In this document: positions 1,630-51,351 of the stretch, piece by piece
Numbering within the stretch: the first letter of the stretch is position 1
Layout: each line of letters begins with the position of its first letter
Origin: Raillietiella orientalis
Taxonomy: Eukaryota
DNA: 51,351 nt
Assembly: GCA_036172245.1 (NCBI GenBank)
Contig: JAYWIR010000054.1
Span: 930,001-981,351, forward strand
Direction of reading: 5' to 3'
Notes under the pieces: generated by a model
Seen by the model: only the letters and a program-made list of their open reading frames with translations
Databases searched by the model: none
Told to the model about the DNA's origin: nothing
Translations under genes and position numbers: made by a program

Positions 1630-1643
1630 TCTTCCCAGCAGTA

Positions 1644-5617: not shown

Positions 5618-5715
5618 CCATCTGCAGTCGCTCGCGGACTGGGACGACTTGAAGAGCTCAGTCCGAGAGTTCTGTGACCAGTTTCCACTCCATCAACTTC
5701 CTCCAGGTTTCGGGG
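5618..5715 (+). mobile_element. APE-RT linker fragment of family F, ending at PPGFG
   Basis: HLQSLADWDDLKSSVREFCDQFPLHQLPPGFG, nearly the same as 35299-35395. Confidence 0.85.
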
Positions 5716-8865: not shown

Positions 8866-8869
8866 AAAA

Positions 8870-10950: not shown

Positions 10951-11039
10951 GCTCTCACTTATTTCCACTGTGATAATCAGGATCATCTAGCCATCTGGCT
11001 TCACTGATAGCTCTAAGAGATATAATTGCCTAGGTGCAC

Positions 11040-18320: not shown

Positions 18321-18533
18321 GTGGTGCAAGAAACATAAAAGAAATCAGTAATTGAAGAACAACGCACTAAAATTATTAAGAGGTGGACAAGAAATCGCAG
18401 CTTGTCAGCTTCGGCTTTTCTCATCCTGTCAAAGATGCTGCAAAATTAGAGCTCGCTGCGAACTATACGGAAGCATTTCATGAGATCTTCGCAAACAGCA
18501 AACATCTCGTCTGTTTTGCAACCCGACTACAGC

Positions 18534-26719: not shown

Positions 26720-26878
26720 TTGTACCTAGGCAACAACCAAGTGCTGCCGACCCTGTCCGTACAGCAAGCTGGCCGACCAGGATTCCCAAGCTTGCCTTCC
26801 GGCTACCGCTTTGTATTCCGACAGCCTGCGGATGTCGGAGTGGACGTGCTGTACGTGCGCTCCTTCATTTAGGTACCA
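26720..26878 (-). mobile_element. APE-RT linker fragment (A-like) starting at the linker target site
   Basis: DIRRLSEYKAVAGRQAWESWSASLL matches A1 DIRRLAEYKAGAERQAWHSGSASLL. Confidence 0.8.
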
Positions 26879-26879
26879 A

Positions 26880-28831: not shown

Positions 28832-30780
28832 TTGTCACTCAGGTGCGCCGAGTCCTTTATTAATAAATTATCAAGGAACACTGTTTCCGGACAAAGGGCA
28901 CAGAAGATACGAAGGGGGAGGTATCTCTACACGCAGATCGGTATACCGAAAGTCCAGAACGGGCGGGAGGGTACCACAACTACACATATAAAAAATAAAA
29001 ATGAAAATATGGGGAGAGTAAGGGACAGGGATCTTTGCTGCTGCCGTTCCAGACTTTCAGAACCAGCTATGGATGCCGGCGAACTATCTCCTAACGCCCT
29101 ATGGTAGATGGGCCAACTCGGAAGCGGACGACATGTTCGCGATGGCTATTCCGGTGTGTTAACGAAAAATGGCCAGCTTATCCAACTCTCGGTGTGCCCT
29201 CTCGATGACGCGGGTGTAACAGACTGTTGCGATTACAGTACCTAAAGACAGGCCGCCTGGCGTGAAGAAGCAGCGCATCAAGTCTCATACAATGTCACCC
29301 TGGTGCCGGAAAGCTGAGGCAAGCCTCCGCCACAGTCCTTGGAGGACACCGCAGTCCAGAAGCAAGTGCGGGAGCGTAACCACATTCCCGCACCGCTTAC
29401 AGTTTGGAAAGACAACTCCCACGAAACACGGTTCGTCCGCTGGTTGGAGTGGAAATCCCGATGCACCAGCATGACGAAGTCCTGCTTCCAAGAAAGGGGA
29501 AGCACAGAAGTGCACAAACAGAAGGGAGGGACCACAAGTACTTCGGGGGGCACACTCAAGTGTTCGCTCCACCGAAGGAGTCCCTTTGGGATGTGGCGAA
29601 CCGTGGCGACGTCTGCCAGCTCGCAAGTCCTCCAGCCGGTCATGTGTCGTGTTGATCCTGCGATGGTGCAGGAGACCTCCCATCTCGCCGGTTGGCAGCT
29701 GTCGTCGCTTGCCCTGGGGGCTGACAGCACGACGGCAAGGGGCGTGATGGTCAGGCGAGTCCACTTCTCTTGGCTGTTTCAGACCTTATCCACCCTGCAG
29801 TACGGGGAGAGGTGAGCACAGCGGAGTTCCAGAAGCGAAACATCCTGTTCCTTTGCCAAGCCATGCAACGGTTCCTACCATCAGGCTTCCAAGTTCGCTG
29901 GGCGGCAAGAGATCCATTTCTGGGATGCCAGGAGCCGGTAGACCGCATTCAACGGGAACCCGAAGCTTCTCGTGGCGCGCTTTGTATGCAGCCGGAGCGA
30001 CAGAAGTCCATCGCTGTCGGTGCAGCGCCGCAAGAGGAGGTGCGCTGGAGCAAACCCCGGAGTAAACCAAAGGTTGGCGCACAGGGCCAACATCCGAAGC
30101 TGCACCCACAGCGCGATTCTCTTCAGCGTCAGCATGCGTAAGCCTGCATCCCGACGCGGAACCGCCAAGTTTTTGAGGGGGATCCTGGAATTCGTAGGTG
30201 CATACAGAGCGTTCCTCAACAGGCTGTGCAACTGTTTCTTCGCCGAGTAGAAGAGCAGGCAAACAAAAAGCAGGGGGAGCAAGAGGGGGGCGACGAAGGC
30301 GTTTCGTACCGCGGCCCGCTCCGATTGGAGGAACCTGCCATGGTGGAACGGGCACAGAGCACTCGTAGCCTTCCGAAGGCAGTCCGACCACACTTTCCCT
30401 GGGCTGATGTTTCTCAGCGGAACTCCCTAGTATTGGAAGGAGGAAGCGGTCAGGATCCGCAGGCGGATCCAATCGGACTGCCCCTCCCACGCCGCATTAA
30501 TAGGAACTACAAAGATCTTAGTCCGGTTTACGCTCATGCCCGCTCCATGGCTAATCAGCTCGAAGAAATCCTCGAGATTGGACGCCGGGGTGGTCACGGG
30601 TAAAAGTAGACGCAGGTCGTCAGCATAGGCCGCCACGGAGGGCGTTCCTGGACAAGAGCTCGGCAGATTGGCCAGCTTCAGCCTCTACGCCCTCAGCACC
30701 AACTCAAAGAAGATGCTGAAGAGCAACAAGCTTAAGCTTTCGCCCTGCCTGATGCCCGGCCAAACCGGCACGTTGCAGCA
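28832..30780 (-). mobile_element. 5'-truncated element I (RT C-half to 3' end), inserted antisense in the APE of K
   Basis: GIRQGESLS, AAYADD, PNCKRCGNVVTLPHLLLDC; terminal hairpin at 28836-28861. Confidence 0.85.
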
Positions 30781-31090
30781 GCTGAAAGAGATACAGCATA
30801 ACGCGTAGCGGCTAGGTATGTCCACTGATCCTGGACGATGCGGCCCACCTTTGCCGTGGTCGCACGCGTTTTTGGTGAGCTCCAGCAAGCGTAACCAAAA
30901 GAAGTTTTTGTGAGTGTGGAACTGCGGACGCTGAAGGGCAGAAATGTCTGAAGACGCCGCAGCACCAGCGACGGGCCCAGGTGCGTCGGGAGAGCCCTGG
31001 ACTCTCCAGTGACCGGGGGGAGGGAAGCCGGGAAGAAGACGCGGCGTCCGGAGCCTTTGCGGTGGAAGTCGATTTGCGTAAAGCTTTCGA
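30780..31090 (+). mobile_element. RT fragment of a host element ending at DLRKAFD
   Basis: GAFAVEVDLRKAFD ends at the junction with A3. The left boundary is uncertain. Confidence 0.7.
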
Positions 31091-32570
31091 TTTTCACCCG
31101 GCTTTTAACGGGTCGTTTATTGAAAATAAACTCTATAGTGAAAATATTAATGGCTGTAGCAATGCTCCAGCCACAAGCGAAGAACCACGGAGCCTGCCAA
31201 TTCACCGGTTCCCAGACCGGTACGGTCCACCAAGGCAGCAGGGAAAGGAAAAAAAAAACTAAACAAAAAGAAACAAAGGGTGTGAGGGAACGGAAAGGGA
31301 TCGCTGATGCTGATGGGGCCGCATCATCACTCTCAGGATGCAGGAAAGCTCTTGTTTGATTTGAACATCCAGGTGACTCCATCGCGACGCCCTCCTCAGG
31401 AATTAGGAGGTGCACTGGATGGCATCCTGATTGCTTGGTCCTCCTGTCGCCGTGCTCCATGCGGTGACAATCCCACGAAGGCAGCACAAGGCTGCTATCG
31501 AGGACGCTGGCCGAAGGGCGTCGGCAACGAAGAAGGCTTTTAGGGCGTCCCTGATGTTGCCGCAAGAGATACCGATGGCCGCGGCAAAGCGGAACCAAAG
31601 GGGCCGAAGGGCAACACAATCCACAAGCAGGTGGGGGAGGGACTCCCGTTCCCCACACCTGACGCAATTGGGGTCCACCGCTCCCCAGGTCCAGTAGTGT
31701 CGGCAGGCGTTGCAGGGGAGTCCGCAGTGCTGCAACAGGAGAGCCGACTCCTGTTATTTTAAGGGGAGGGTGGAGGTGTTCATTAGTACCGAGGGCCACT
31801 TCAAACGTTCAATGGGAACGTCGAGCAGCGCGCCCCAGCCCAGAAGTCCATAGGGAGGCGTACTCGGGGTCGCAGCGTCAGTCAGCTGACCCGTCTTCCA
31901 CTCTCCTATTTTCTACTCCTTCCCGGAGATTGTAACTGCAACCTCCCACTTCGCCGCAACATCGCTGTTCAGATCTTCCATCAAGTAGGGCAGCGCAGCA
32001 GCTAGGGGAGTTCTTCCTGCCCACGCTCTCTTCTTTGGATCCTCCAGGATCTTACGGAGCGTGCAACTTCTGTAACCCCCAAACAGGAACCTTCGTTCCT
32101 GTTGGGAGCGTTGCATGCCGAACTGTCCCCACGTGCGAACGGTTTCCTGCAACCAGGCACTACCGTTCGCAAGGCGACAGGTGATTTGTCCAAAGTATCT
32201 TCGTGTCAGCGCAGCCACCCTCCGTAGCTGAAGTCCGCATCGGTTGAAGCGGCGACAAAGTGCAAGAGAGGACGTCAGTCCCGTGATGCTGGTGGGTTGC
32301 TGGAGAATGAGACCTGCAGAAACGCACCAACAGGTGCACCACAACTCCGGAACAAGTGCCAACATTCGGAACGGGAGCTGAAGTTCCAGCCGTTCCAATG
32401 TCAGGACGCCGATTCCACCGTCCCGACGCGGAGCGCACAAGTCCTTTAAGCGGACTCGGGCCCTCCCGTTGTCCCAGAGGGCGATACGGAGGAGGTCTTT
32501 CGTCCGCTTTTTTATCCTCTCTGTGGGGGGGCAAACAAAAAGCAGGTGGCGGAGGAGAGGAGCCCCTCAT
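31091..32570 (-). mobile_element. 5'-truncated family A copy A3
   Basis: MQRSQQERRFLFGG, NCVRCGERESLPHLL; ends CCGGGTGAAAA on the minus strand. Confidence 0.9.
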
Positions 32571-34015
32571 TTCATACGAAAAAGAGCAGCGGGCCTCCTG
32601 AGGAGATTCCTTTGGGGCAAATGGAGGTACCGTGTGAGGCTCAAAGATTTGTGCTCTCCACTTAAGGACGGTGGACTTAAAGTACCTACGCTGGAGCGCA
32701 TGGAAATACAATTAAGGTTTCGGACTCTCGCTTTTGCGGCCGATTTGTGGGACAAGCCGTGGTGCCTTTTACCACACCTCCTGGCCAACGAGCCTGTGGA
32801 TTCGGCGGACTTTTGTCGTTTCTGTTGGCGCGCAACAGCGGAGAAGCCCACAGCGGCTTTTTCCTGCGTCGCATGGACGTTGGTTTACTGGGAAACGCCT
32901 GGATCTCCTGCCTACCAGGGAACTACTCTGCATGGTTGCACGAGTCAGTGTCCACCTGAGTAAAGATCCACGTTCCGGCGGGCACGAAGAACACTTGCCT
33001 GCAAAGGCACGCCTGCTGGAAGCTGCAGGAGATTGTGCAGTCCCAGGATAAGCTAATGTGAGCCCTGATAACACTTCTTGCCCCAGAGCTGCCCTTCCTT
33101 GTAAACGCCAGGGACAGTAGCGAGCAGGGGAGATGGACCGTGTCCTGCACCATAGGCGTCAGGACACAAGCGATAAAGGCGTGGACATCTCGGCAGCTAG
33201 CGGACCCTGCGACACCGAGTGTCCCGCCAAACGGAATTCGACGCTGGGGCGAGCTACTCGGACTATCTCCGGAGGAGATGAAGTGGCCCCCAGCGTCCTG
33301 GAACAGTGCATCCCTACCCCTGAAATGTCAGGATGTGGCGTTGCTTGTGGTACTCTGGGGTTTACCTTTTAAAGCACGCCTGCATCACACCACCCGGGGG
33401 GCTGTGGATCCTAATTGCGACCGGTGCGGGGAAAAAGAAACATTCCTCAACCTCCTTATTTAGTATAGCGCCCTCCACTCTCTCTGGGATCGCCTTGCGT
33501 CGATTTTGGACTTGCGCGGATGCTGCCCGAAGGACGTATTCAGGCGCCTCTTCTATCGTGACTCCTTGTCTCCGTTCGCCTGTGTAGTAGTCCTCTGCTG
33601 CATTCGAGGGATCGTGGCGGCTTGGAACGCCACCAGAAAAAGACGTCAGATAACCGGCAACGCTTTACATTGGACTCGCACTTTCGAGCGAACCGTGTGC
33701 AAGTGGCGCCATTTGGGCGCAGATAGGACGCAGCTTGCTAGGATCCTCAAGAGGATCTAGAGGACCCTTCCGCGCGCGCAGTGATCCCTTCCCTGCCCTT
33801 CCATCCCTAAAACATTTGTTTTCTTCCAGGTTTGAACTTTTTGTTTCTTTTTGTTTTTCTTTATTTCCCATCCCCGCGCATCGGAAGGACCTCTCCGGCA
33901 CGGAGCCGGTAACCAGCAAGCTGTTTTGGAGTGGTAAACCTTCGGGTTCGCCACGCGACATTTTTCTGTAATTTTATTTCCATGAAATAAATGCCCCGGC
34001 ACATCCGGGTGTCAA
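32571..34015 (+). mobile_element. 5'-truncated element J (ORF2 C-terminal third + 3' UTR)
   Basis: RVRLKDLCSPLKDGGL, EMKWPPASW, DPNCDRCGEKE; AATAAA-CCCGG-cacat-CCGGG-TG at 33986-34011. Confidence 0.9.
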
Positions 34016-35395
34016 CAACCCGCCGCCGCGCGAACGCCGACGCCGCAACAAATTCGCGAGCCCAGCGTGAGTAGCGACGACCGGGACTTCAATAAGGAGG
34101 CGGAAGAGTTAGCAGCCATGCTCCAGCAACCTCCCAAGGCCCAGGAGAAGGCCTTGAGGCGTCCGGCTGAGGCGAAAGGACCGGAGACTTCCGAGTCCAA
34201 AGCCGAAGCCGGCAACGCTCCGGCAGTCGCTCTCCCGAAGCGCAAAGCGGGCCGCAAGGTAGGCAACCCGCGGCGCTCCGCACCTCCACCGGCGGAGGAG
34301 GAAATGCGGTCGGACCACGACGACGGGGAGGCGATGTCCGCGAGGTCTCGCTACTCCTCGCCGGAGACGTCCCTGGCCAAGCAGGATCCTCCAACCACCA
34401 CCACAACCACCGACGGACCGCCTCCTTGCGAGCAACAGCCCGTCGCAATGGATACACAACTCCCGCCTGCTGAACAGCAGGCGGAGGACGGTACGCTTAC
34501 ACCATAAACCCACCAACGCGTGGACTCTCCTCCTGCCGGCGACTGCGCGTAATCTGTTGGAACGTCAACGGGTTGCGCGACGACGGCAAGAGGAGAGAAG
34601 TGCCCGCCAGCCTGCGGGACTTTGACCTGGCGCTTCTGCAGGAGACGCACGTGCTCCGCGCAGGGGAGGCCCAGGAAATCGAACGGATCGCAGGCGGGCG
34701 GCTCGTATACCAAAAAGGGAGAGACCGCACCCGCAGTGTGGGTTTCATGCTGAAGCCAGCCGTCGTTATTGCGCTGCGCGACGTACACTTCGACGGGGAA
34801 GGTCAAATCGGGCAGCTTGTTGCCAAGTGGTCCGACGCGATCGACCTCGTCGTGACCAACGTGTACGCGCCCGGCACGAGCCACAGGCGCGGGGAACGCA
34901 GTTGGTTCTTCGAAGGCCTGCGGCGAAATTGGCTGGCCGAAGCAGACATGCGAAACGCGCACCTCATTGCCGGGGAATTTAACGTCTGCCTGCTGGCAGG
35001 TGCGCCCGACATTCGCGCACAGCTGGTCAACGAGATGTGCGCTGCCATGCACGCGCGCAACTTGTTGGCCGGTATCGCCGGGACGGAGACGAGGATCGAA
35101 CACATGTTCCTCGTCAACAACCTGTGTTCGCGGGTGGGAAATCAAGGGGCAATGCCATCCGTACTTTCCGACCATCCCCGGTTCGTGGTAGAAATATACC
35201 CGCGCGGTAGAGGTCCACCCTCCACAGCGTGGAGTTTGCCAGGGGACTGGTTGCGCCTCGCAGGAGCGCAACATCTTTGCTCGTTCCTGCAAGGCTTCCA
35301 TCTGTAGTCGCTCGCGGACTGGGACGACTTGAAGAGCTCAGTTCGCGAGTTCTGCGACCAGTCTCCCCTGAACCGTCTCCCTCCAGGATTCGGCG
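34016..35395 (+). mobile_element. Element F: ORF1 tail (to 34507) and APE domain, interrupted at PPGFG
   Basis: KEAEELAA, WNVNG, LLQETH, NVYAP, AGEFN, SDH motifs. Confidence 0.9.
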
Positions 35396-35602
35396 TTGTC
35401 ACCTGGGTTCGCCCGGGGCGTTTATTATAAACTCCACATGCGTGGTACAAGGCCCCACCACGGCCGTAAACACAGGACCTGTCGAGACACCGATACGCAG
35501 CCCGGCGTGGCACTCCCCTACAGCGAAAGGGGATGAGGGGAAAAAACAAAAAGAAGAATAAAGAAATAAAAAACAAAAAGAAGTTGGAGGGCAGGGAAGG
35601 GA

Positions 35603-38600
35603 TCACTCGTCGCTGTGGGGAGGGCCCATCCGTCGAAAGAAGCCCTCGAGCTGTGTCTGCATATTCCACAGTTGGGGCCATTCGGCAGCTCTTCGCAAGA
35701 AGCGTTGGGCATACGGGATGACATCCCTCGCCTGTGGTCCCACTCCTTCGTTGTTGGCGTCGCTCCATGCCGCCACGATGCCACGCAAGAACCACGAGGC
35801 TGCGATGGCTGCGGCTGGCTGCAGTGCGTCCTTCACGAAGAGGGGCCGAAGAACGTCTCTGAAGGTGCTGTTTGTAGGGAGCTCGAGGGTCGTTCCGAAC
35901 CCTTTCCAAAGGGGTCGGAGGGCAGCACAATCCACAATAAGGTGGGGGAGAGACTCCCGCTCCCCGCACCTGGCACACGCAGGATCCACAGCTCCCCTCG
36001 TCCAGTGGAAGCGGCGCGCGTTGCAGGGTAGACCCCAGTGCAAGAAGAGCAACGCCGACTCTTGCCACATGAGGGGCAGGATCCTGGATTCCTTCATCAC
36101 CGGGGGCCACTCCAGCTCATCCCTGGGGATGGCGAGCAGCTCACTCCTTCTTAATAATCCTCGCGGCTAAACGCTCGGGGTCGTGGCGTCGGCCAGTTCC
36201 CCTGTTGTCCAGCCGCTGATCAACTTCTCGCGTCCCTCGATGCAGCAGGAGACTTGGCACCTTGGCGTCCGGCTGCTGTGAAGTGCCCTCCTCAGGAAGG
36301 GCAGCGCCCTAGCTAGGCAGTTCTTCTCTGCCCATGTGCATCTTGCTGGACTTTCCAGGATATTCAGCAGCGTGCAGCGGGCGTAGGGGCTGAATCGGAG
36401 ACGATTCCACGTTTCGTAGCACCTCTGGTTAACCGCTGCCCACGTTGCAATATTCTCCTCCAGCCAGGCGGGGGAGTTCGCGGGGAAGCAAACCATCCAG
36501 CTGTTCTCCTTGGCCAATGTTGCTATGCGCCCCAGCAGTAGGCCGCATCTACGCATCTTCCGGCCACGGCTCAGAAGAAAAGGCGCGAGTCCATCGCACC
36601 GGGACACACGGCTGGCCAGGAGGAAGGACGGAGTGCACCAAATGGTGTTCCACATCCTCGTTGCGATGGCGAGTGTTCGCCACTGCAGCTGCTTCTCCAC
36701 GCGCTCTAGCGTCAGGAGGCCAAGACGGTCGTCCCGACGCGGAGCGCACAAGTCCTTCAAAGGGACTCGGGGCCTCCCCTTGCCCCAAACGGCGATACGG
36801 AGGAGGTATTTTGTCCCCTTCTTGGATTCCACGGTTGGGGTGCAAACAAAATGCAAGGGGCGGAGGATGGGGGCCGCGAAGGCGTTCCGAACCGCGGCCT
36901 GTTCCGGCAAGTGAACCTTGCCTTCCAGGAACGGGCCGATCGCCGTCTCGACTCTTTAGGGGCAGCTGGACCACGCTTCCGCAGGGGAGTAATAGTCCAA
37001 CGGAACACCAAGGTACTTGAAACACCTCGCCTTACGGATCACCAGACGGACGCAGTCCTACTGCCCTGCCCACGCCGCACCCATTGGCACAACCGAAGTC
37101 TTCGCTCTGTTAACCTGCAGTCCGGTTTCGCGGCTGAGCAGATCGAAGTAGTCTCCGACCGCCTTCGCCGGGGTGGACATTCGCAACAAGAGCAGAAGAT
37201 CGTCGGCGTACGCTGCTACGGCGGGCGTGCCGGGGCACGAGCTCGGCAAGGGGGCCAAAGTCACCCTGTACGCTCTCAGGACCAGCTCAAAGTAGGTGCT
37301 GAAGAGCAGGGGGCTGAGGCTATCTCCCTGCCTTATGCCCCGCCGTTCCGGCACGCCATACACCTGGTGTCCACTGAAAGAAACGGTAATAATCGCATTC
37401 CGACAGCAAGAGCGCAGGTAGGAAATTAGGAAGGGTGGCAAGCCCATGCGATCCAGGAGCTCCAAGAGGAGTTCCTAGTCTACACAGTCGAATGCCTTGT
37501 GGAGATCGACTGCTAGCGCTAAGGCCCTCTTCCCCGCCCGGCGGTCCCTTCCCAGCCCAGCTGGCGGCCCCAATGTGAGGTTGTTGACTTTCCCTATCCC
37601 TTTCTTTTCTCTTCTCTGCAGGTGCACCCATGTGCTTGCGAAGAAGAGGTTGGCATCCATACTTCGCCCGGGAACCGCATAAGACTGCTCCGGGCTAATT
37701 ACGGATTCTGCCACCTGCCCCAAACGCGAAGCTCATAGCTTTGCTATTAACTTCGCGTTTGTATTCACGATCGTGATCGGACCCCAGTTCTTTAAATCCC
37801 TGAGGTCTCCCCCTTTCGGAAGGAGCCTCACTCTGGCTGACCGAAACGAGGCGGGAACATCGCCTTTGTCTCGGATCAGCCTGATCAACTTAAGCAACAG
37901 GGGTGCCAGCTCTTCCGCGAAGCTCTGAAAGAGCTCCGCGAACAAGCCGTCTTCCCCTGGAGCTTTACGCCTCTTGAGCCTTTTGATACCGGCAAGAATT
38001 TCGCCGGTGGTAAAAGGCTCGTCGAGGATTTCAATCTCCTCCTCCCCTATTGCCGGGGCGCCATCCGGAAGCAAGCGCCGAGAGGCGTTTCGATCCGGGG
38101 GCTCCCTGGCGTAGAGGGAGGAATAAAAACTCCGCACGAGATGCCGTACCGACGCCGAGGAAGAATATTCCCGGCCCTGGTCGTCCAGCAAGCTGGCCGA
38201 CTCGGATTGCCAGGCTTGGCGTTCGGACCCCGGGCGGTACTCGGACAGGCGACGGACATTAGGGTTTCTCTCGTACCTACGAGCCTGTAAATAGGCCCGA
38301 TGGTTGCGAGCATCCTCGCCGAATCAGGGGGCAGGTGATCCAGGGGGAACTGCTCACAGAACTCCCGGACCGATTCGTTAAAAAGGTCCCAGTCCTGGAG
38401 ATTCCGGAGCGTGACGCCTCTCAGGTATTCGCGAAGGTGTTCCTTCGCACCTGAGAGTCGCGTCCAGTCCCCCGGCAGACGCCAATCCCTGGATGGCGGA
38501 CCTTTGTCGCGAGGCCGCATCTCGAAAATTAACCGGGAATGGGCCGACAACGTCGACGCAACCCTCCCCCGTTTGCCGACCCGTGAACACAGGTCAGCGT

Positions 38601-39200
38601 CGAGGAAGACGTGGTTGATGCTGCGGACCATTCCCCTCGCACCCGCGAACAAGTTGCGCGCACGCATGGCGGCGCTTAACTCGTTCATCGAGTTCTCTTG
38701 TGTTTCTGGCTCACCTGTTAGCAGACGGAGATTGAAATCTCCCGCTATCATGCGAGCCTTCCGCACGTTCGTGCCCGCCAGCCAGTCGCGCTTCAGGGAT
38801 TTCAGCAGCCTGGTGCGGTGGCTGTATCCCTGTTTACCGCTGGGGGCGTACACATTGGTGACGATCAGTTCGATCGAGTCCGACCAGCTGAGAATCAGCT
38901 GACCGACCCGACCGTCGTGATCGAAGCGCACGCCCTTCACGGCAGCGTCGATGCCCGGCTTCACGAAGAACGCGACCCCGCAGGTGTTGCGGATACGCAT
39001 CGCCAATACAGCCGACCCCCCGCGATCGTCTCGATTTCTCGGGCGTCTGCCGCGGTGATCACGTGGATCTCCTGCAGCAGGGCCAGGTCGAGCTCACGCA
39101 GAGTTTCTGCCGTATCTCGCCTGTTACCGTCGTCGCGCAGCCCGTTGACGTTCTAACAGGCGGCGCGTATACGACGGCGACTGGCGAGCCCAGGTGTTAC
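35603..39200 (-). pseudogene. C ORF2 (APE-RT-Cys/His finger), several stops and frameshifts
   Basis: NVYAP, AGDFN, KAPGEDG, DLHKAFD, RQGDSLSP, YADD and CARCGERESLPHLIVDC spread over ORF pieces. Confidence 0.92.
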
Positions 39201-40878
39201 TCTTGGGGAGATTGCGATGCGGTGTCCACCACCTGTTGTTGCGGGACGCTAGGTGGAGGAGGAAGGTCAGGCGCTGCTTGCACCTGGTCCCCCTCCTCCA
39301 TGGGTAACGGCGCGTCGAGCGGGTCACCCTCAGGTGAGGTCGCGCCTCCCTGCTCACCCTTCTCCATGGGGGTGGCATACTCACCGGCTTCGGAGCGTGG
39401 GAGTTCCTTGTCGGGGATTCCCACGCTACCGCTACCTTCCTGCTTCTCCTCCTCGCTGGTAGAGGGGAGGCTCCTCCTGGGTTTCAGGGACTTGCGTCCC
39501 GACTTCCTGGGGGGTGCCTTCGAGGAGGAGGATGCACTTCCGACCCCCAGGTGCGACTCACCTGTGGGGGCCTTTTTCGCGTGAGCCGGCCTTCGCACGG
39601 CCTTGCGTGAGGGGTTCTCACGCTCCGCCAGCGTGGCCGCGAGCTCCTCCGCCACCTTTACGAATGCGGCGTCCTCTTTGTCGACCGGCGCGTCGCGCGG
39701 CTCACCCTCTGTTTGCACAGAGGGTTCGCCGTCGCGAACTTCGGGCGCGACGGAAACGGCGAGGGGAGGCTCGTCGCCCCGGGTGGCATCATCCGGAACG
39801 ACGAAACGTTGCAGTGCCACCGTGCACTCGCGTACGGTTTCCGAACGCGGCCCGGGTTTTTTGCCTTACCGGCCGGCTTCAATTTTTTCTCCTTTAAAGG
39901 AGCTTTCCTCTCTTTTCTGGCTGCTACAAGTTGCCAGCTCTCTTCACTTTCCGCCTCTTGGAATGGTTTATCCTCAGTCTTTTCTTTTGGAGGTTGAGGA
40001 TCTGGCAGCTTCAGCCAGCCAGCGTCCGCCTTAGGTCTTGTGACCTTTACTGCGCGTTTCCCCTGCGCCTTTTTCGCGGCAGGAGGAACCGGGGTGGGGC
40101 GTTTTGGGCACATACGTCGAACGTGGCGCTTCTCCCTGCACATGTGGCATTGGATGTTAGGACACCTCTTGCGAAGGTGTCCTACGGTATAGCAGTAGCC
40201 GCAATACCGGGGCTTTCCCACGTACCAGAGGTCCACGCTCTCTTGCGCGACCTCCAGCTTGTGGGGAATCCCACAGTCCTTACTCACGGTTACCCGCGCT
40301 GCAGCATTGCCTCCGGAATGGCTATTGAAGCCTTCAAAGATTGTTGGCTTAGACCACAGCGCGTGCACCTCGCCGAACTTCCGAAGTTCTTGTGCTACCG
40401 CAGAGCGAGCCATACGGCTCGTTATTCCAGTGAGATGGACCACCACGGAGCGTTCCATCGTCACCGGCAAGATCTTGCGGCCGTCGACGTTTAACGGGTT
40501 GGTGATTAGAGCCTGAGCCGAGGTGATCTGCTTGCACACCACCTCGACTCGCTGACCTCCGCTGGGAACGGAGAAACCGTCAAGATCTTGTTCTTTTACT
40601 CCGGCGTTTTGCAGCGCTTTCGAAAACGCGCGTGCCGATTTTCCTTCAAATAAGGGGCCTACCTGGTACATTAAGCTGGGCTTGTACCCAGCTGCCCGGT
40701 AAACCGCCATCTTGGCCACGGTTTCCGGGCTCGGCGCGGCCACCATGGCGCTCCAGCTCCTAGACTTATGCGGCGAGGGCGATTCCGGGGCGGACGCCCC
40801 TGATTCTGTAGGCTGTTGGAGTGGGCAAGCCTCCCACACACCTACCTCCATCGTGGTGACCTCAGGCATCGCTGCCAT
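39197..40878 (-). pseudogene. C ORF1 (two CCHC knuckles; frameshift near 39880)
   Basis: MAAMPEVTTMEV...CGYCYTVGHLRKRC..CHMCREKRHVRRMC; tail in ORF 39197..39820. Confidence 0.88.
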
Positions 40879-40985
40879 CGGACACCAACGATGTTCCACA
40901 CGAACACACACAAAGAAAAAGCCGCTTCCTGTCGACTCACTCGGGAGCGAAGGAAAAAGACGTATACTCGCCAAGGGATTCGGCG

Positions 40986-43096
40986 ATGCCACCCAGATAC
41001 GCCAAGACGTTTATTCAAAACATTTCAACAGTCAATACAGAACGTGGTACAAGGACCCACTGACGGCCACGCAATACCGGAACTGCCGGGACACCGGGAC
41101 GCAGCCCGTTGTGGCTCCCCTCGGCATTAAAGGGGGATGAGGGAGAAAACAAAAATAAAATAAAAGAGAAAAACAGACCACAAAAAAAGTTTGGAGGGCC
41201 GCGAAGGGATCACAGAAAACTGCTGGGAGCGCCTATCCTTTGCAGGATGCCTTCTGGTTCCATTTTCAGGTTTCCTAGATTGGGTCATCGGTAGCTCTCT
41301 GCAGGAAGCGAGAAGCATACTCGATGACGTCCTTCACGATGCAGTCTTCATCTTCGGCATCACTCCAGGCCGCATCGATACCACGAATGCAGCAAAGTGC
41401 TGCCAGGGCTGCAGCTGGACTAGGGGCGTCCCGCACGAAGACATGACTGGAGACATATCCAACATTGCCACCATCAGGTATTGCAAGGGCCCTTTTAAGA
41501 CGATACCCAAGAATCCGGACGGCAGGGCATTCAACTAAGAGGTGGGGGAGCGACTCTTGCTCCCCACACTTGGCACACGCAGGATTTACTCTTCCCCGCG
41601 TCCAGTGGTAGCGGCGCGCGTTGCAGGGTAGACCCCAATGCAGCCACAGAAGCGCCGATTCTTGCCACTTCAGGGGAAGAATCCTGGATCCAAGTAGAAC
41701 CGGGGGCCACTTCAGGTCATCCAATCGAATGCCGAGCAGCTGCCCCATCTTCTTAATCCACGCGGCTGGAGACTAGGGGTCGTTGCATCTGTCAACTCTC
41801 CCATGGTCCAGCCGCTCATCATCTTCTCTCTGCCTACGATACGGCAGCAGATTTGCCAATTTGGCTTCCGGCTTCAATGAAGCGTTCTTTGGAGGAAGGG
41901 CATCGTCGTAACAAGGGGTGTGCCTTCCGCCTACGTGCAACTCGGTGGAAATTCAAGAATTTCAAGAAGAGTTCGGCGGGCGTAAAAGCCGACTCGCAGG
42001 CAGTTCATCGGTCTTTGCACCTCTGGTTCTGCTTGGCCCAGGTGCCAGCAGTCTCTTCCAGACAAGTGGAGGAGTAGGCAGGGCCACAAACCATCCAGTC
42101 ATTCTCCTTTGCCAGGGTTGGCATGCGGCCGAGCATTAGACCGCATCTTCGAATCTTCCGGCCAGGGCACAGAAGAAACGATGCGAGTCCTTCGCAGCGG
42201 GACACACGCCTGGCCAGGAGGCGGAACGGAATGCACCAAGCGGTGCTCCACATCTTCGCTGCGATAGCGAGGGTCCGCCATCGCAGCTGGATTTTTTACG
42301 CGCTCCAGCGTGAGGATGCTGAGACCGCCGTCATGATGCGGAACGCACAAGTCCTTCAAAGGGACTCGGGGCCTCCCCTTGCCCAAAAGAGCTATGCGAA
42401 GGAGGTCCTTCGTCCGCTTTTTTGATTCCACGGGGGCGGGGCGAACAAAAAGCAAGGAGCGGAGAATGCGGGCCACGAAGGCGTTCCAAACCGCGGCCCG
42501 TTCCGGCAAGTGGAACTTGCCTTCCAGGAACGGGCTGATCGCCGTCTCGACTTTTTGGAGGCAGCTGGACCACGCTTCCGCAGGGGAGAAGTTCCCTAAC
42601 AACACACCGAGGTACTTGATGCACCTCACCGTGGGGATCCCCAGACGGACCCAGTCATGCTGTCCTGCCCACGACGCTCCAACTGGCAACACTGACGACT
42701 TCGCGCTGTTAACCTGTAATCCGGCACCACGGCTAAGCAGGTCGAAGAAATTTCCGACCGCCTTCGTCGGGGTGGACATAGGTAAGAGGACAGAAGATCG
42801 TCGGCACACGCCGCTACCGATGGCGTGCCGGGGCACGAGCTTGGTAAGGGGGCCAAAGTAACCCTGTACGCTCTCAGCATTAATTCAGCGTAGGTGCTAA
42901 AAAGCAGGGGGCTGAGGCTGTCGCCTTGCCTTCTGCATCGCCTCACCGGCACGCCATACACCTTTTGTCCACTGAAAGTAATCGAGATTGTCGCGTTCCG
43001 CCAGCAAGAGCGCAGGTAGGTAATCAAGGAGGGTGGGAAGCCCATGCGTCCCAGGAGCTCCAAGAGGAGTTCCTGTTCAACACAGTCGACCGCCTT
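40986..43096 (-). mobile_element. Element B, 3' half (RT from D-CVEQELLLELL to the 3' end)
   Basis: RQGDSLSP, CADD, KYLG, CAKCGEQESLPHLLVEC; terminal hairpin at 40990-41015. Confidence 0.9.
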
Positions 43097-43193
43097 TTGC
43101 GCGCTAGGGCGGACGTGTTTTCTCGGTGCTCCTCGTGCCAGGAAGTCTCCCCCAGTGCAAGCGTCGTATGGTTCGGTGGTCGATCAGGCAGCG

Positions 43194-44863
43194 ATGCCTG
43201 AGGCGTCCACCAGGGATAGCCAGGAGGCAGCGGCAACGCCGCCCCCAGAGGCGATGGAGAGCCAGAGGGCAGGGGAAACGTCGCCCCCAGAGGCGATGGA
43301 GGTGAAAGCATCCGCCCCCACAGAATCGGTCTCCGCTGCAGCGCGGGCGTAAAGCGCCGTTGTGTCGGCGCCATCGCCTGCAGCCGCGGCGGAATTGTCG
43401 GCCTATGTGGAGGAGGGGTACAACCCCTCATTGTTCTACAAGGTAGGCAATTTATATTCTTTAGAGAGCGCGCGCGCCTTATGGAAGGGCATGCGCGCTC
43501 TCGGTGTCAAAGAGGAGGAGCTCAGCGCTATGACCATCCGCAGCGGGGGTCAGTACTTTGAGGTCATCTGCAAACATGCAGAGCTGGCCCAACGACTGCT
43601 TAAAACTCCTGTTGTGATGGAGACGCGCAGGCTCCTCCCTACTACGGCGGACCGCAGCATGGTGGTCCACCTGTTAGGCGTAACCGTGCGAATGCGCAAA
43701 GAACAGGTTCGCGCCGCTTTGGAACAGTTCGGAACGGTCCACGCGCAGTGGACGAAAGTAAGTCCTTCTAAGGACTACACGGAGCTGCAGCACGGCCTCA
43801 CTGCTGCGCGCGTGACCGTTCGGGAAGGCTGCACTGTTCCCCACAAACTAGTGGTCGAAGGCGAAACCGTCGACCTCTGGTGTGTCGGGAAGCCGAAATA
43901 CTGTGGCTTCTGCAATACGTCGGGCCACCTCAAAAAGAGGTGTCCCAATGTGCAGTGCCAAGTATGCGGCACAATGGGCCACACGAGGGAGATGTGCCCA
44001 AAAGCAGCAGTGCGGGTGGTTTCCGAAAGAAACCTTAAAAAACGCGCCCGGCTTCTGCAGAAAAGGCTGGCGGCGAAAGCTGCCGCGAAGGCTGTGCCAA
44101 TCGCGCCCAAGACCCAGGCCGCACCCGTGACCCCGGCGACCAACGCCGAAAAAGTTGAGGGAGACGCCCAGGAGACTGGGTGGCAAGTGGCAGCGGACAA
44201 AAAATCAAAGAAGGAGAGGAGGATGGAATAGAAAATCGCCTACCAACAGAAGAAGAAAGAGCAGGGTAGCGCGATAATTAAAAAGTGCAGCGTCGTTGTC
44301 GAACGCGTTCTCGATGTTGCCGAACGCTGCCGGAAAGAACTCGCCGCTACCGACGACCTCCCCTCTGTTGACACAGTCAACAGCGAGGGGAGCGAGCCGG
44401 CGGCGGCGTCCGTCATCGACACCACCATCGATGACGTAGCCTTCGCGCGAGCCGCGGAGGAGCTGGCAGCTTCGTTGCAGCCAGAACCCTCCAAGGCTGG
44501 CAAGAAGGCCGTAAGGCGTCCGGCCTCCCCTCAAGAGTACCCACTTCCGACCCCGAGGTGAAGGCCGGAAGCGCAGCCTCCGTTTCCACGGCACCGCGCA
44601 AGAAGGCTGGACGTAAGTCCACAAAGCCAAGGAAGCTCGATCCCCCCGTCGAAGGAGAAGATATGGCTGCCGCAAGCGAGGGTGCCATGAGCGTGGGAAA
44701 CTCTCCGGACCCGTCGCCCGAGAGACTTCTACGCGCGGACACGGAGGGGATGGAGGGGGTGAAGGAGGAGGAGGCCGAACAGGTGCCTCAGGTGCCTGAG
44801 AAGACCGAAACCCCCATGGACATCCCGCCCGCCTCGCAAGAGGACGGCTCCCCCACACCTTAA
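43194..44863 (+). pseudogene. A2 ORF1 (two CCHC knuckles; stops at 43350 and 44229, frameshift near 44530)
   Basis: CGFCNTSGHLKKRC..CQVCGTMGHTREMC. Confidence 0.88.
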
Positions 44864-44877
44864 TCTTCCCAGCAGTA

Positions 44878-47800
44878 ATGCCGGGAATCTCCTACCGCCG
44901 TCGTCAGCGCATCGCCGTTTGGAACGTGAACGGTATGACAGACGCCGGCAGGAGACGAGACATGGCCGCCCTTCTGGAGTCCTACGACCTTGCGCTGCTG
45001 CAGGAGATCCACGTGATCTCTGCAGAACAAGCGCAAGAGATCGAACGGATCTCCGGATGGCGGCTATGGTACAGGTGTGGGAGACCGAAAAGTTGCGGTG
45101 TCGCCTACCTGCTTCGGCCAGCCGCCGAAGACGCGGCTCGGGGCGTGCAGTTCGACGATCACGGTCGTGTCGGCCAGCTGACTCTCAGGTGGTCCGACTC
45201 GATCGACCTGATCGTCACGAACGTGTACGCACCGAGCGGCAAGGACCTGATGAACAGGAGGGCGAAAAAAGAGTTTTTCCTTGCCCTCCGGCGAGACTGG
45301 CTGACCGAAGCAAGCGTGCGGAATGCCCATCTGGTTGCAGGAGATTTCAACGTTCGCCTGAAACCAGATGAGCAGAATCCCGACCGTGATCTGGTCAACG
45401 AGGTGTGCATGGCGGTGCACACCTGTAATCTGTTGGCTAGTGCACCGGGGATGGAAGACAACATGGACCACGTGTTTCTTGACGAGCACCTGTGCCCTCG
45501 CGTAGGCAGGCGCGGCAAGTAACCGTGCGAGCTGTCCGACAATCGCCCGCTGGTCCTCGAGATCCATTCGCGTGACAGGGGCCCCCCTCGTCAGCGTGGC
45601 GTCTCCCAGGAAACTGTCTGAAGCTCCCGGACGCGGCGGAACATCTCCGCACGTTCATACGGAGCTTCAGGCTGCGGAAACTCCAGGATTGGGACCGCTT
45701 CAAGCGGTCGGTCCAGGAGTTCGGCGACCAGTTCCCTCTGTACCCCCTACCTACGGGTTTTGGGACCGAGGTCCGTAACGAATGAGCCTAAGTGCAGACC
45801 CGTCGTTACGCCAGGACCCCCGACATCCGCAGGCTAACGGAATACAAAGCGGGAGCCGAGAGGCAAGCCTGGCAGTCCGGATCCGCCAGCTTACTGGACG
45901 ATCAAGGCCAGAAGCACTCGGCACCTAACCAAATCCGCGGCCAGCTGCGGAGTTACTACTCCTCCCTGTATGCCAGGGCACCTCCGTAGAGGAACTTCTC
46001 ACGACTCCTGCTTCCGGAAGGCGCTCCAGCGATCGGGGATGAGCAGAGAAAGACCCTCGACGAGCCTTTCACGATGGACGAGATCCTCTCGGCCATCGGA
46101 AAGCTCAAGATGCGAAAGGCTCCAGGGAAGGACGACCTGCCCGCGGAGTTTTATCAAGCTTTCGCGGCTGAGCTAACCCCCCTGGTACAGAAACTTACCA
46201 TGCTCATACACGAAACAGGTGACGTTCCCGCCTCGTTTCGTTCGGCAAAAATGCGTCTCCTAACTAAGGGAGGAGATCTGAGGAGCATGAACAACAGGGG
46301 TCCCATCAAAATTGTGAATGCGGACACCAAGTTGATAGCCAAGATGTGGGCAGAGCGTCTGGGACGGGTTGCCAACATCTTCATCAGCCCTGAACAGACA
46401 TATGCTGTTCCCGGGCGAAGCATGGAGGCGAACCTGTTCCACGCTTCCACCTGGCCAGAGCTCCAACATGAAAGGAGCTTGGTGCGCAGCCGAAATTCCG
46501 TTGCGTGCGCCGGCAAGGGGTTTGATGGTCGGGTGGGGGAGGGAGCCCTTGCGGTCGCAATCTACTTGCGAAGAGCATTCGATTGGGTCGACCAGAATCT
46601 CCTTCTGGAGCTTCTGGAACGCTTGGGCTTCCCGGCCTCCTTAGTGACCTATCTGCGTTCTTGCTGGCGCGACGCGCTCATCAATGTTACTTTCAGAGGG
46701 CAGATCGTGCACGGCGTGCAGGTGCGGCGTGGGATCCGGCAGGGAGACAGCCTGAGCCCCTAGCTCTTCAGTACCTACTTTGAGTTGGTACTAAGAGCAT
46801 ACAGGTGAACTCTTACACACCTGCCGCACTACTGTGCCGGTACGCCGGCCGTTTCCGGATACCCGGACGGCCTTCTGCTGCTGCTCCCTATGTCCAACCC
46901 GGCTGCGGTGGTCGAGGAGTTCTTCGACCTGCTGCATCGGGGAACGGGACTTACGGTGAACAGGGCGAAGTCGTCCGTGATGCCAGTTGGTGCGTCCTGA
47001 GCAGGGCAGCAGGACTGGGTCCGTTTTGGGATCCTCACGGTGAGGTACTTCAAGTTCCTTGGTGTGCCTTTGGGGGACTACTCCCCTGCGGAAGCGTGGT
47101 CCGGCTTCCTCCAAATAGTAAAAACGGCGATGGACCCGTTCCGAGGCGGCAGGTCTTTCCGGCCTGAACGGGCCGCGGTTTGGAACACGTTCTCGCCTCC
47201 TCTCCTCCGCCTTCTGCTTTTCGTTTGCCCCCCCACAGAGAGAATTAAAAAGCGGACAAAGGACCTTCTCCGTATCTCCCTTTGGGGCAACGGGAGGGGC
47301 CCGATTCCGCTTAAAGTACTTGTGGGCTTTTCGTCGGGATGGTGGTCTGGGCCTCCTGACGCTGGAGCGGCTGGAGATTCAGCTCCAGTTCCGATTGTCG
47401 GCACTCGTTCCAGGGTTGTGATGCACCTGCTGGTGCGTCCTTGCACGTCTCCTTCTCCAGCAAGAAACCGGCAAGACGGGACTGACGTCGTTTCTTTCAC
47501 TACGTCGCCGCGTCAACCGATGCGGACTTCAGCTACGGAGGGTGGCTGCGCTGTATCGCAAAAACCCAGGATTGTTCACCTGTCGCCCTTTGAACGGTAG
47601 TGTCTGGTTGCAGGAAACCGTTCGAACGTGGGGACAGTTCGGCATGCAACGCTCCCAACAGGAACGACGTTTTCTGTTTGGGGGTTACAGAAGCTGCACG
47701 CTCCGGGATATCCTGGAGGATCCAAAGTAGAGAGCGTGGGCAGGAAGAACCCCACTCGTTGCTGCGCTGCCCTACTTGATGGAAGATCTGGACAGCGATG

Positions 47801-48459
47801 TTGCGTCGAAGTGGGTGGTTACAGTAACAATCTCCGGAAAGGAGAAGAAGATAGGAGAGTGGAAGATGGGCCAGTTATCAGACGCTGCGACCCCGAGTAT
47901 GCCTCCCAATGGACTTCTGGGCTGGGGCGCGCTGCTGGATGTTCCCATTGAACATTTGAAGTGGCCCCCGGTGCTCATGAACACTTTCGACTTCCCCTTA
48001 AAATGGCAGGAGTCGGCTCTCCTGTTGCAGCACTGGGGACTCCCCTGCAACGCCCGCCGACACCATTGGACCTGGGGAGCGGTGGACCCCAATTGCTTCA
48101 GGTGTGGGGAACGGGAGTCCCTCCCCCACCTGCTAGTGTATTGTGTTGCCCTTCGGCCCCTTTGGTTTCTCTTTGCTGCGGCCATCGAAATCCCCTGCGG
48201 CAACCCCAGAAACGCACTGAAAGCCCTCTTGGTTGCCGACGCCCTTCTGCCCGCGGCCTCGTTAGCAGATTTGAGCAGTCTACGCGGGATCGTCACCGCT
48301 TGGAGCAAGGCTACGGGAGGACAACGCGACCGAGGTGCCATCCAGCCAGCCTCCCAGTTCCTGAGGAGGGCGTCTTGATGGCCCCACCTGGAACCAGGAA
48401 TACAGAAGGAGCTTGCCGGCATCCTGCAAAGAATGCAACGGCCCCACCAGCAACTGTGA
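44878..48459 (+). pseudogene. A2 ORF2 (APE-RT-Cys/His finger), heavily disrupted
   Basis: MPGISYRRRQRIAVWNVNG...; colinear with A1 ORF2; YADD decayed to YPDG. Confidence 0.92.
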
Positions 48460-48676
48460 TCCCTTCCCTTACCCTCCCAACTTTTCTTTTCTTTTTTGTT
48501 TTGTTTTTGTTTTTCCCCCTTCCCCCTGCTGCCGTGGTTGACCGTGCCGGTCTGCGAACCGGTGATCCGGCATGCTCTGTGTTTATTCGTGCGTGGCTGG
48601 AGCAATGGTCCAGCCACCGCACGTCTTTGTAAAAGTTTATTTCACAATAAACGCCCCGGCGAAATCCGGGTGAAAA

Positions 48677-49515
48677 TCGAATGCCTTATGGAGGTCGACT
48701 GCGATCGCTAAGGCCCCCTTCCCCGCATGAGGGTCCCTATTTTGTACCACTGGCGGCCCCGAAGTAGGGTTGCAAATTTTCCCTTTCTCTTCTTTCTTAC
48801 TTCGCTGTGCGTGCATCCATGTGCTCGGGAAGAAGAGGTTGTCCTCCATACTTCGCCCGGGAACAGCGTAAGTCTGCTGCGAGCTAATTACGGAATTGGA
48901 AACCTGCCCCAATCGCGACGCTTACAGCCCGGGAATCAACTTGGCGTACGTGTTCACAATCGTGATCGGACGCCAGTTGCAAAGTTTCCAGAGGTCTCCT
49001 TCTTTCGTGAGGAGCCTCACCCTGGCTGACCGAAACGAGGAAGAAACATCGCCTTCGTCTCTGATTCGCCTTGTCAACTCGAGCACCAGGGAAGTCAGCT
49101 ATTTCGCGAAACTCTAGAAGAACTCCGCGGGCAAACTGTCATCCCCTGGCGCCTTACGCCTCTTGAGCCTTTTGATACCGTCGAGAATTTCACCGGTCGC
49201 GAAAGGCTCATCGAGGCTTTATCTCTCCTCGTCCCCTATCTCCACGGAACCACTCATGAGCAATCGCCGCGAGGCGTCTTGTTCGGGTGGTGTTTTGGCG
49301 TTAAGGAAGGAATAAAAACACCGCACAAGATTCCGTACCGCAGACGGGGACGAACGTTCCCAGCCCAGGTCATCCAGCATGCTGTCTGACCCGGATTGCA
49401 AGGCTTTTCGCTGGGCTCCGGCGCGGTATTAGGCCAGGCGACAGACATTGGGGTTCCTCTCGTGACGACGAGCGTGCAAATACGCGCGTTCGTTGCGAGC
49501 TTCTCCGCCGAATCC
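48677..49515 (-). mobile_element. Element B, middle part (linker GFG to DLHKAFD)
   Basis: GFGGEARNERAYL...KAPGDD...QTYAVPGRSMEDNLFF...GALAIAVDLHKAFD. Confidence 0.9.
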
Positions 49516-49617
49516 CCGCTGTGGAGAGCGGACGTGCTTTTCCTGCGCTATGCCTGCGTGGCAAAGCGAGTGTTTTCTCTTCTTAAGTGATTTGTGCGTG
49601 CACATCGTCGGTGTCCG

Positions 49618-51351
49618 ATGGCAGCGTTGCCAGAGGACACCGCGATGGAAGTAGGCGTGATGGAGGCTTGTTCGTCCCCACAGCCTACTGGATCAGGGGC
49701 ATCCGCCCCTGAATCGTCCCCGGCGACGCCGAGGTCCTGGAGCGCCATGGTGGCCGCGCCTAGCGTGGAAGCCATGGCCGAGATGGAAGCAAACAAGAAA
49801 GCGGGGTATAAACCCTCGCTAGTCTACAAGGTAGGCAACCTTTTCGATGGGAGAACTGCACGCGCCTTTACGAAGGCGCTGCAGGACGCCAATATTTTTG
49901 AAAAAGATCTCGACGGCCTCTGCGTCCTCAGCGGCGGGCAGCGGGTCGAGGTGGTATGCAAGGTTATCACCTTGGCCCGACACCTGATCACCGACCCGCT
50001 GATCGTTGATGGTCGGAAGATCTTGCCGATAACGATGGACCGCTCGGTGGTGGTCCATCTCACTGGGATCTCAAGTCGCATGACGAGGTCAGCGGTTCGA
50101 GAACAGCTTCAAAAGCACGGACAAGTGCACGCGTTGTGGCCGAAGTCCACGATTTTCCAACGCTACAATAGCCTTTTCGGAGGTCAAGCTGCGGCGCGTA
50201 TCACGGTAAAAGAGGGTGGTGCGCTTCCCCATAAGCTGGAGGTCTGCCAAGAAGCGGTGGACCTCTGGTACGTGGGAAAACGCCAATTTTGTGGCTACTG
50301 CAATGCAGTAGGACATCTACGAAAAAGGTGCCCGAACATTGTGTGCCACCTATGCGGCGAAAAGTGTCACGTTCGGCGCGTGTGCCCCAAGCGCCCCACC
50401 CCGGTGCCCCCTGCCGCCAAAAAGGCGCAGGGAAAACGTGGAAAGCTGGTAGAAAGACCAGCTCACGAAAATGGCCGTTCCCAACTGCCAGCCTCCCTTC
50501 CTCCCGTACAGACGTCGGAGGAAATAGCTCCCGTGGACGCGGGAATGGAGGAGGGTTGACAGCTGGTTCAGGCCAGAAGAGAGAAAAAAAAGAAAGTGAT
50601 GATAGAAGAAAATTCGGAAAAGAAAACTGCCGGCAACAAGAAAAAAGCCGCTCCGCTTTCAAAAAAAAAACTCCGCGAATGCTCGGTGGCACTGGAACGC
50701 TTAGCCGTTCCTGCCGAGTCCGCCCGCGGCAATGTTCGCGGAACAGCTGATGCGGACGCGATGAATACTCGCGTGGACGAGCCCAATCTACGTGTAGAGG
50801 GTGAGACGCGAGACTCGCGCGCCGACAGCCAGGACGCCGCGCTCGATAAAGTCGCGGAGGAGCCCGCGGCAACGTTCGGCGTCAACGATGACGCCGCGCT
50901 CGATAAGGTCGCGGAGCAGCCCGCGGCAACGGTCGCCGCTGGCGAAGACGCGGCCTTCGAGAAAGCGGCGGAGGAGCTCGCAGCAACGCTCGCCGAGCGC
51001 GAAACCCCGTCGCGCAAGGGCGTACGCAGGTCGGCTCCGACGAAGAAGGCACCCGCAGGTGAGTGCGACCTGGGGGCCGGTAGCGGATCCTCCTCCTCGG
51101 AGGCACCCCCCAGGAAGTCGGGACGCAAGTCCCAGAAACCCAGGAGGCGCCTCCCCTCCACCAGCGAGGAGGAGAAACCAGAAGGAAGCGGCAGCGTGGG
51201 AATCCCGTAGTGGGAATACCCACGCCCGGAAGCCGTCGAGTCGGCCACCCCCATGGAGGAGGGAGAGCAGGGCGGTGAAGTCCTCCCTGCAGTCGCGAAA
51301 CCTGAGCAGCCCGAACCCATGGAGGAAGGCGACCAGGTAGGCGCGACTCCA
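49618..51351 (+). pseudogene. D ORF1 (two CCHC knuckles; in-frame stops at 50557 and 51208)
   Basis: MAALPEDTAMEV...CGYCNAVGHLRKRC..CHLCGEKCHVRRVC. Confidence 0.88.
50833..50988 (+). repeat. In-frame 57-bp tandem repeat x3 (DAALDKVAEEPAAT-type)
   Basis: Units start at 50833, 50890 and 50947. Confidence 0.9.

Follow-up and report, generated by a model that had tools for sequence, protein, structure and literature searches.

Antisense insertions of L1-like LINEs at recurrent short sites within the coding sequence of their relatives in a nested cluster of Raillietiella orientalis

A stretch of 51,351 bp from the genome assembly of Raillietiella orientalis (GCA_036172245.1, contig JAYWIR010000054.1, positions 930,001–981,351 of the forward strand; hereafter the window, which denotes this whole stretch at its full length) harbors nested elements of the long interspersed nuclear element (LINE) type, many of which lie inside one another at recurrent positions of the second open reading frame (ORF2) of a related element. 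The window is composed of two GC-rich blocks (1–11.7 kb and 26.4–51.3 kb; GC about 0.50–0.62) that, based on a self-comparison map, consist almost only of related LINEs, and the two clusters are parted by a spacer of 15 kb (11716–26450) with a GC content of 0.39–0.44. Elements were mapped by aligning the window to itself and to two complete reference copies, C and A2 (blastn and tblastx), and reference positions are those of the 5580-bp copy C unless A2 is named (Table 1). The 3’ ends were located through a common motif (ATAAAYG, a 5-bp hairpin, and GGGTG plus a few bases) and the 5’ ends through a common GGACGTGYTTT motif.

The elements are L1-like LINEs of the type that couples an apurinic/apyrimidinic endonuclease (APE) to a reverse transcriptase (RT), and belong to a poorly sampled family. 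A Pfam search of stop-to-stop frames recovered Exo_endo_phos, RVT_1, zf-RVT, and zf-CCHC in the expected order and on alternating strands, with Exo_endo_phos scoring 47.3 bits in A2 and 27.1 bits in F (at 34474–35304) against a cut-off of 24.5, and RVT_1 scoring 22–25 bits on fragments, below its cut-off of 29.6. Amongst solved structures, the 825-aa ORF2 piece of A1 best matched human L1 ORF2p (E = 2e-33), with R2 proteins at 1e-10 to 3e-12, and sequence databases contained one close relative of this piece at 67% identity, all others being ≤30% identical and almost all unnamed. The ORF1 of C is a 450-aa open frame (39661–41010) for which an atlas look-up returned CCHC/ZCCHC3-like clusters (0.93–0.94) at a recognition value below threshold, and this match is used as a lead only.

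Two traits of the L1-like class are present, the endonuclease preceding the RT in ORF2 and target-site duplications surrounding the full insertions, and a third, the poly(A) tail that mammalian and plant L1 elements and Zepp typically carry, is absent from all ten 3’ ends. Each of the ten terminates in the hairpin followed by 4–12 nt (e.g., GTGAAAA or GTGACAA). Due to the lack of poly(A), the 5-bp hairpin, which has compensatory changes in two of its five pairs, is probably the signal recognized by the RT. At the opposite end, C and A2 retain their full 5580 bp, and the usual 5’ motif of the family opens D, M, and P. Occurrences of GGACGTGYTTT at 43111, 49530, 26842, 10488 (minus strand), and 1058 (minus strand) are located ~14 nt from the terminus in most elements and ~3 nt from it in E, which may be missing some 10 nt; the motif may represent a start-site or an internal promoter signal.

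The right-hand nest, formed by F, C, B, A2, and D, contains the most complete succession of insertions. F is the host of both C and B. The flanks of C are a 10-bp duplication, GGATTCGGCG, identical at 10/10 bp, and, as the 3’ end of B directly follows the second copy of GGATTCGGCG, C and B constitute a tandem double insertion at one site of F. B is itself interrupted twice. An 11-bp duplication (TCGACCGCCTT and TCGAATGCCTT; 9/11 bp identical) surrounds A2 at the K-A-F-D codons of B, and D starts directly after the GFG site of B (49506–49515), which reads CGCCGAATCC on the plus strand because B lies on the minus strand. The GFG site of C itself (38317–38326; one mismatch) is empty. D contains a 5’ untranslated region, a 322-aa open ORF1 frame and, downstream of that frame, a 57-bp tandem repeat (3.3 copies; 50816–51003), and a 42-bp tandem repeat (2.1 copies; 43214–43301) is located near the start of A2. 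At the left edge of the window, the 3’ end of A1 is placed at the KAFD site of a minus-strand host (junction 5444/5445) and A1 was in turn hit by E (junction 1068/1069); since the A1 host and B are only 66% identical, the insertion of A1 was independent of that of A2. An original prediction made from the DNA letters alone had proposed both histories, in which the minus-strand copies C and B entered F, A2 and D then entered B (at KAFD and GFG, respectively), and, at the left edge, A1 entered a minus-strand host and was itself hit by E, and each junction that it named is present at, or a few bases from, its predicted place.

Table 1. LINE-derived features of the window and the target-site duplications of C (positions counted from the first letter of the window).
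Feature	Position	Strand	Description
E	1–1068	−	Divergent element, 5’ part (ORF1); meets A1 with its 5’ end at ~1186 of A2
A1	1069–5444	+	A lineage, 91% identical to A2; 825-aa open ORF2 piece
A1 host, RT fragment	5445–5617	−	66% identical to B over the same stretch
F-like fragment	5604–5715	+	Ends in GFG site GGTTTCGGGG (5706–5715)
B-like, 3’ part	5716–6615	−	At GFG site of the F-like fragment
K	6810–9294	+	Divergent element; pieces at reference 215–652 and ~4050–5457
M	9295–10511	−	5’ part of an A-like element; 5’ end abuts KAFD site of Q
Q	10512–11715	+	Host of M; starts with AAAGCGTTCGA (K-A-F-D); 3’ end meets non-LINE DNA
A-like fragment	26654–26838	−	Abutted by 5’ end of P
P	26839–28831	+	5’ part of a C/B/D-like element, reference ~1–1968
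N	28832–30772	−	3’ part, reference 5580 to 3621; antisense in P, ~25 nt downstream of EEI site
Host fragment of H	31029–31090	+	KAFD site carries 3’ end of H
H	31091–32563	−	A-lineage 3’ part, 83% identical to A2
G	32574–34016	+	Divergent element, 3’ part; its 3’ end adjoins F, which has the same strand
F	34017–35395	+	Partial L1-like copy, reference ~1241–2659 (end of ORF1, APE, linker up to GFG site); blastn/tblastx
C target-site duplication, left copy	35386–35395		GGATTCGGCG; reads G-F-G in the APE frame of F
C	35396–40975	−	Full-length, 5580 bp; 3’ hairpin, ORF1, degenerate ORF2
C target-site duplication, right copy	40976–40985		GGATTCGGCG; 3’ end of B directly after
B, 3’ part	40986–43096	−	Reference 5580 to 3475; ends in left copy of A2 duplication (43086–43096)
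A2	43097–48676	+	Full-length, 5580 bp, A lineage; antisense in B at RT motif KAFD
B, middle part	48677–49515	−	Reference 3488 to 2651; begins with right copy of A2 duplication, TCGAATGCCTT (48677–48687), and ends in GFG site of B
D	49516–51351	+	First 1836 bp of a C/B-lineage element; antisense at GFG site of B, runs off the window

The sites used in the right-hand nest recur elsewhere in the window. Four events are located at the KAFD site (A1, A2, H, and M), of which A1, A2, and H have the junction ...GGGTGAAAA / TC(G/A)AA.GC(C/T)TT in common and the 5’ end of M coincides with the same 11-mer in Q. Identity amongst the four hosts is only 61–69%, and the insertions are thus separate events. 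KAFD (or KAFE) aligns with ...IDAEKAFDKI... of human L1 ORF2p, so that the target is a conserved motif of the RT. The GFG site carries four inserts (C, B, D, and the B-like element), equivalent to at least three independent events if the B-like element duplicates the B/F junction. The EEI site, early in the APE, has two events, the 3’ end of K (tail GAGAA, ~9294), which lies antisense in M, and a loose end at 45041 amongst contigs of a public sequencing run (run X1, see below) with a GAGAA tail and a flank position identical to those of K. At all three sites, independent copies agree in their target, in the base at which they are inserted, and in their orientation relative to it, and E, N, and P represent single antisense events at three further positions. 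A common insertion site for N and K was considered and ruled out, as the two positions are ~25 nt apart.

Occupancy of the recurrent sites is high, with inserts present in four of the seven copies that cover the KAFD position and in three of the six that cover the GFG position (the latter by four inserts); the empty GFG copies are C and two A-lineage copies, which differ at the GFG site. The exact 10-mer GGATTCGGCG occurs four times in the window (0.12 expected) and three of the occurrences are at junctions. The fourth (32798–32807) is in sense orientation in the ORF2 of G at a non-homologous position and is unoccupied, so that either the 10-mer alone is insufficient as a target or its occurrence is due to chance. 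A maximum likelihood tree built from the terminal 850 nt of the ten elements whose 3’ ends are visible groups the KAFD users (A1, A2, and H; support 100/100) and the GFG users (C, B, and the B-like element; support 96/96), and places N with Q, with K and G standing alone and K on a long branch. This topology agrees with a lineage-specific choice of target, though it does not amount to proof, given the few copies and the fact that kin share labels.

Repeated junctions could also go back to one or two ancestral junctions that were multiplied through segmental duplication or gene conversion. The 91% identity of A1 and A2 fits such an origin, as does the left-hand GFG junction, where the B-like element and B (88.6%) and the F-like fragment and F (84.5%) are similar on both junction sides, and the B-like/F-like junction may indeed be a segmental duplicate of the B/F junction. 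As an account of the sites as a whole, copying of junctions is nevertheless highly improbable: past the junction the hosts of A1, A2, and H have the low identities given above and differ in strand, identities of 70–78% between C, B, and D mark them as distinct copies at the same site, and C has its own perfect duplication.

Across the window, 12 of the 13 LINE-to-LINE junctions are antisense (one-sided binomial ~0.002), the sole same-strand junction being that of G and F (34016/34017). The original prediction had stated that every nesting step flips strand, which holds for these 12 junctions and fails at G/F; its further proposal that such clusters grow by self-targeting is supported. Stacking as such does not impose the flip, which arises because nucleotide-precise, orientation-fixed target sites, each with a lineage of its own, lie in the ORF2 of the elements themselves.

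The region is a genuine nested cluster of L1-like elements from one GC-rich family with several sub-lineages, and it is likely that target-primed reverse transcription inserts each sub-lineage at a short ORF2 sequence of its own in relatives. The window directly shows junctions and duplications, repeated use of sites, and a correspondence between lineage and site, and the steps behind them can be proposed as follows. The C/B/D lineage would target GGATTCGGCG (G-F-G, in the linker between the APE and the RT), the A lineage would target AA(A/G)GCNTT(C/T)GA (K-A-F-D, in the RT motif), and a K-type lineage would target the site early in the APE. At each site, the sense strand of the host element would be nicked and would serve as the primer for target-primed reverse transcription. 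Because the primer end would lie on the host sense strand, the new copy would be antisense to its host, flanked by a duplication of 10–11 bp, and nesting depth would fix the strand of each element, resulting in the alternating pattern. By analogy to R1, TRAS, and Tx1, the site specificity would reside in the endonuclease.

Several observations weigh against this reading. Every element of the window lacks an intact ORF2, with the piece from A1 as the longest still open, and the duplication around A2 has two mismatches in 11 bp. The number of events per site is small (4, 4, 2, 1, 1, and 1) and derived from one 51-kb window and one weakly matching run, one of the GFG junctions may be a duplicate as discussed above, and for the singletons E, N, and P strict site specificity is not demonstrated. 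The same-strand G/F junction is not accounted for, and may represent either a rearrangement or a tandem insertion whose site is not visible. Lastly, there are at least six distinct sites and all are antisense, which endonuclease specificity alone does not predict and which suggests an added cause, either survivorship or a homology-guided choice of strand.

In the homology-guided alternative, sense RNA would pair with the template strand of a related copy in an R-loop-like structure, and the displaced sense strand would be nicked and act as the primer, with the nick preference of the lineage setting the base. This would account for the antisense orientation at the recurrent and the three singleton sites alike (at least six positions and 12 of 13 junctions) and for the location of every target within homologous elements. 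Pairing of the 3’ tail with the target was ruled out as a source of specificity, the tail and the primer strand having ≤1 nt in common, so that tail–target pairing offers no explanation of its own. However, DNA identity between hosts and inserts is often only 57–65%, a poor basis for RNA:DNA pairing, and nucleotide-exact 3’ and 5’ junctions with fixed duplications of 10–11 bp are the pattern of sequence-specific APE elements. We know of no homology-guided strand-capture mechanism for LINEs, and it is quite unlikely that homology sets the antisense orientation here. The related proposition of homology-guided target capture, in which LINEs would find and disable relatives by sequence and the endonuclease would only fix the base, is also judged unlikely.

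Survivorship offers another route to different sites that are all antisense, provided that sense nests also arise and are then lost or hidden by recombination between the insert and the direct-repeat flanks of its host. The 26–34 kb part of the window, with its deletions and rearranged pieces, including host segments that are missing beside antisense inserts (e.g., N in P), is compatible with such losses. Yet survivorship gives no account of identical insertion bases and the same duplication across independent hosts, and lineages that have diverged to 57–65% identity are too dissimilar for efficient homologous recombination, making it a very unlikely explanation. Site-specific integration into relatives is the preferred reading. 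In the same part of the window, H (minus strand) and G (plus strand) are positioned head-to-head at 32563–32574 and are cut at similar ORF2 positions, despite belonging to different lineages. A common 5’ truncation point for H, G, and K was ruled out, as a protein alignment places their truncations at ~4080, 4128, and ≤4047 of A2, respectively.

A look-up of public sequencing runs listed one match, run X1, with 0.08 of the sampled words, and no RNA run. X1 provided 267 contigs at ≥90% identity (17 at ≥99%, 84 at 95–99%, and 166 at 90–95%). These contigs are related copies, not this locus, and X1 therefore neither confirms nor refutes the assembly. One contig joins 43085 to 48677 and skips 5591 bp, equal to A2 (5580 bp) plus one copy of the duplication (11 bp); in this related copy the KAFD site is empty, with only 36 letters of the contig on the shorter side. 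Differences of the X1 copies from the window (34016–51351) are mostly transitions (A>G, 106; T>C, 106; C>T, 61; G>A, 71). Misjoined repeats of one family could generate false strand switches, and the locus is highly repetitive, with X1 supplying 90–99% similar copies as opposed to reads from the source sample. We give almost no credence to an assembly artefact, as the strand switches occur exactly at complete termini (5’ motif and 3’ hairpin) with target duplications and the same kinds of junction are found in the X1 contigs.

The spacer contains a 1.8-kb inverted repeat (16696–18480 and 22044–23823; 75.5% identical) with mirrored open frames of ~190 aa. No Pfam family was detected in 31 frames from the spacer and the ORF1-like regions, including the frames of the inverted repeat, and one of the mirrored frames, an ORF of 191 aa, had no relatives in the databases. 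The inverted repeat may be an unrelated transposon. Beyond X1, a protein-based scan of metagenomes matched 26 stretches, none of which was a relative, and a scan of metagenomes for the 3’-end pattern returned 27 loci, none with a blastn match to the elements and with tblastx matches amounting to scattered noise of low identity.

Self-targeting, nested clusters of L1 elements (Zepp/ZeppL) and site- and orientation-specific APE-type LINEs are both well known. Compared by published description, the clusters in the window resemble those of Zepp and ZeppL in Coccomyxa and Chlamydomonas, which are L1-type LINEs that target their own copies and form GC-rich nested clusters. GC in the window is ~0.55–0.62 for the LINE parts, as against 0.39–0.44 for the spacer. 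In the accounts drawn on here, Zepp of green algae has a GC content of 61% in a genome of 53% (PMC8226300, PMC3446292) and its nests are tandem arrays of mostly 5’-truncated 3’ ends (PMC8226300), and a poly(A) end is given for both Zepp and L1-1_CR (PMC3747384, table 3). Going by these accounts, the elements of the window differ from Zepp in lacking poly(A), in possessing a 3’ hairpin, in the many full-length copies, and in their insertion at fixed internal ORF2 sites in antisense orientation. Some LINEs of the L1 clade are described as having ‘stringent’ 3’-end recognition with a conserved stem-loop (Ohshima 2012/2013, PMC3747384). As far as this description extends, the hairpin of the window elements is similarly conserved and bears compensatory changes, and the 3’ ends do not depend on poly(A), though the sequence and the organism differ, and no link between the hairpin and the choice of target is claimed.

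Sequence-specific APE-type LINEs include R1, TRAS/SART, and the Tx1 group (with Tx1L in Tx1D, Keno, and Mutsu), and the R elements split the sites of ribosomal DNA (rDNA) amongst themselves. The elements described here are like R1, TRAS/SART, and Tx1 in their nucleotide-exact insertion, fixed orientation, short constant duplications, and many full-length copies, and like the R elements in that several lineages split different sites of one multicopy target. Unlike R1, TRAS, and Tx1, they insert into the coding sequence of their own LINE family, a conserved RT motif included, and not into RNA genes, telomeres, microsatellites, or DNA transposons; it is because host and insert are relatives that the nest alternates in strand. 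McGurk and Barbash (2018) have reportedly described transposable elements inserted twice in tandem at a single site, and C and B, head-to-tail at one 10-bp site with one copy of the duplication between them, are of this form, except that here the pair is a by-product of site specificity within another LINE and does not lead to satellite DNA. No account of LINEs that target other LINEs site-specifically and in antisense was found in the literature searched, a search that had Repbase reports and subscription journals outside its reach and so is not proof of absence. Likewise, no description was found of the combination of sibling lineages, nucleotide-exact antisense targets in the coding sequence of the family itself, many full-length copies, and a hairpin 3’ end.

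Site-specific integration into relatives would provide a simple, testable mechanism for the growth of clusters composed only of LINEs, a kind of cluster that marks the centromeres in some green algae. The elements would home to short conserved sequences in their relatives, one of which is an RT motif that a target could not easily mutate away, and the distribution of sites suggests a guild of LINE lineages that partition conserved ORF2 coding motifs as niches, in the manner of the R elements in rDNA. Targeting of relatives would spare host genes and kill competing copies, and it is possible to speculate that the sense and antisense transcripts of such nests feed small-RNA silencing. The alternation of strands would serve as a deterministic read-out of insertion history, and the 10–11-bp targets together with the full-length 5580-bp copies constitute material for nicking and retrotransposition assays and for a genome-wide census of sites.

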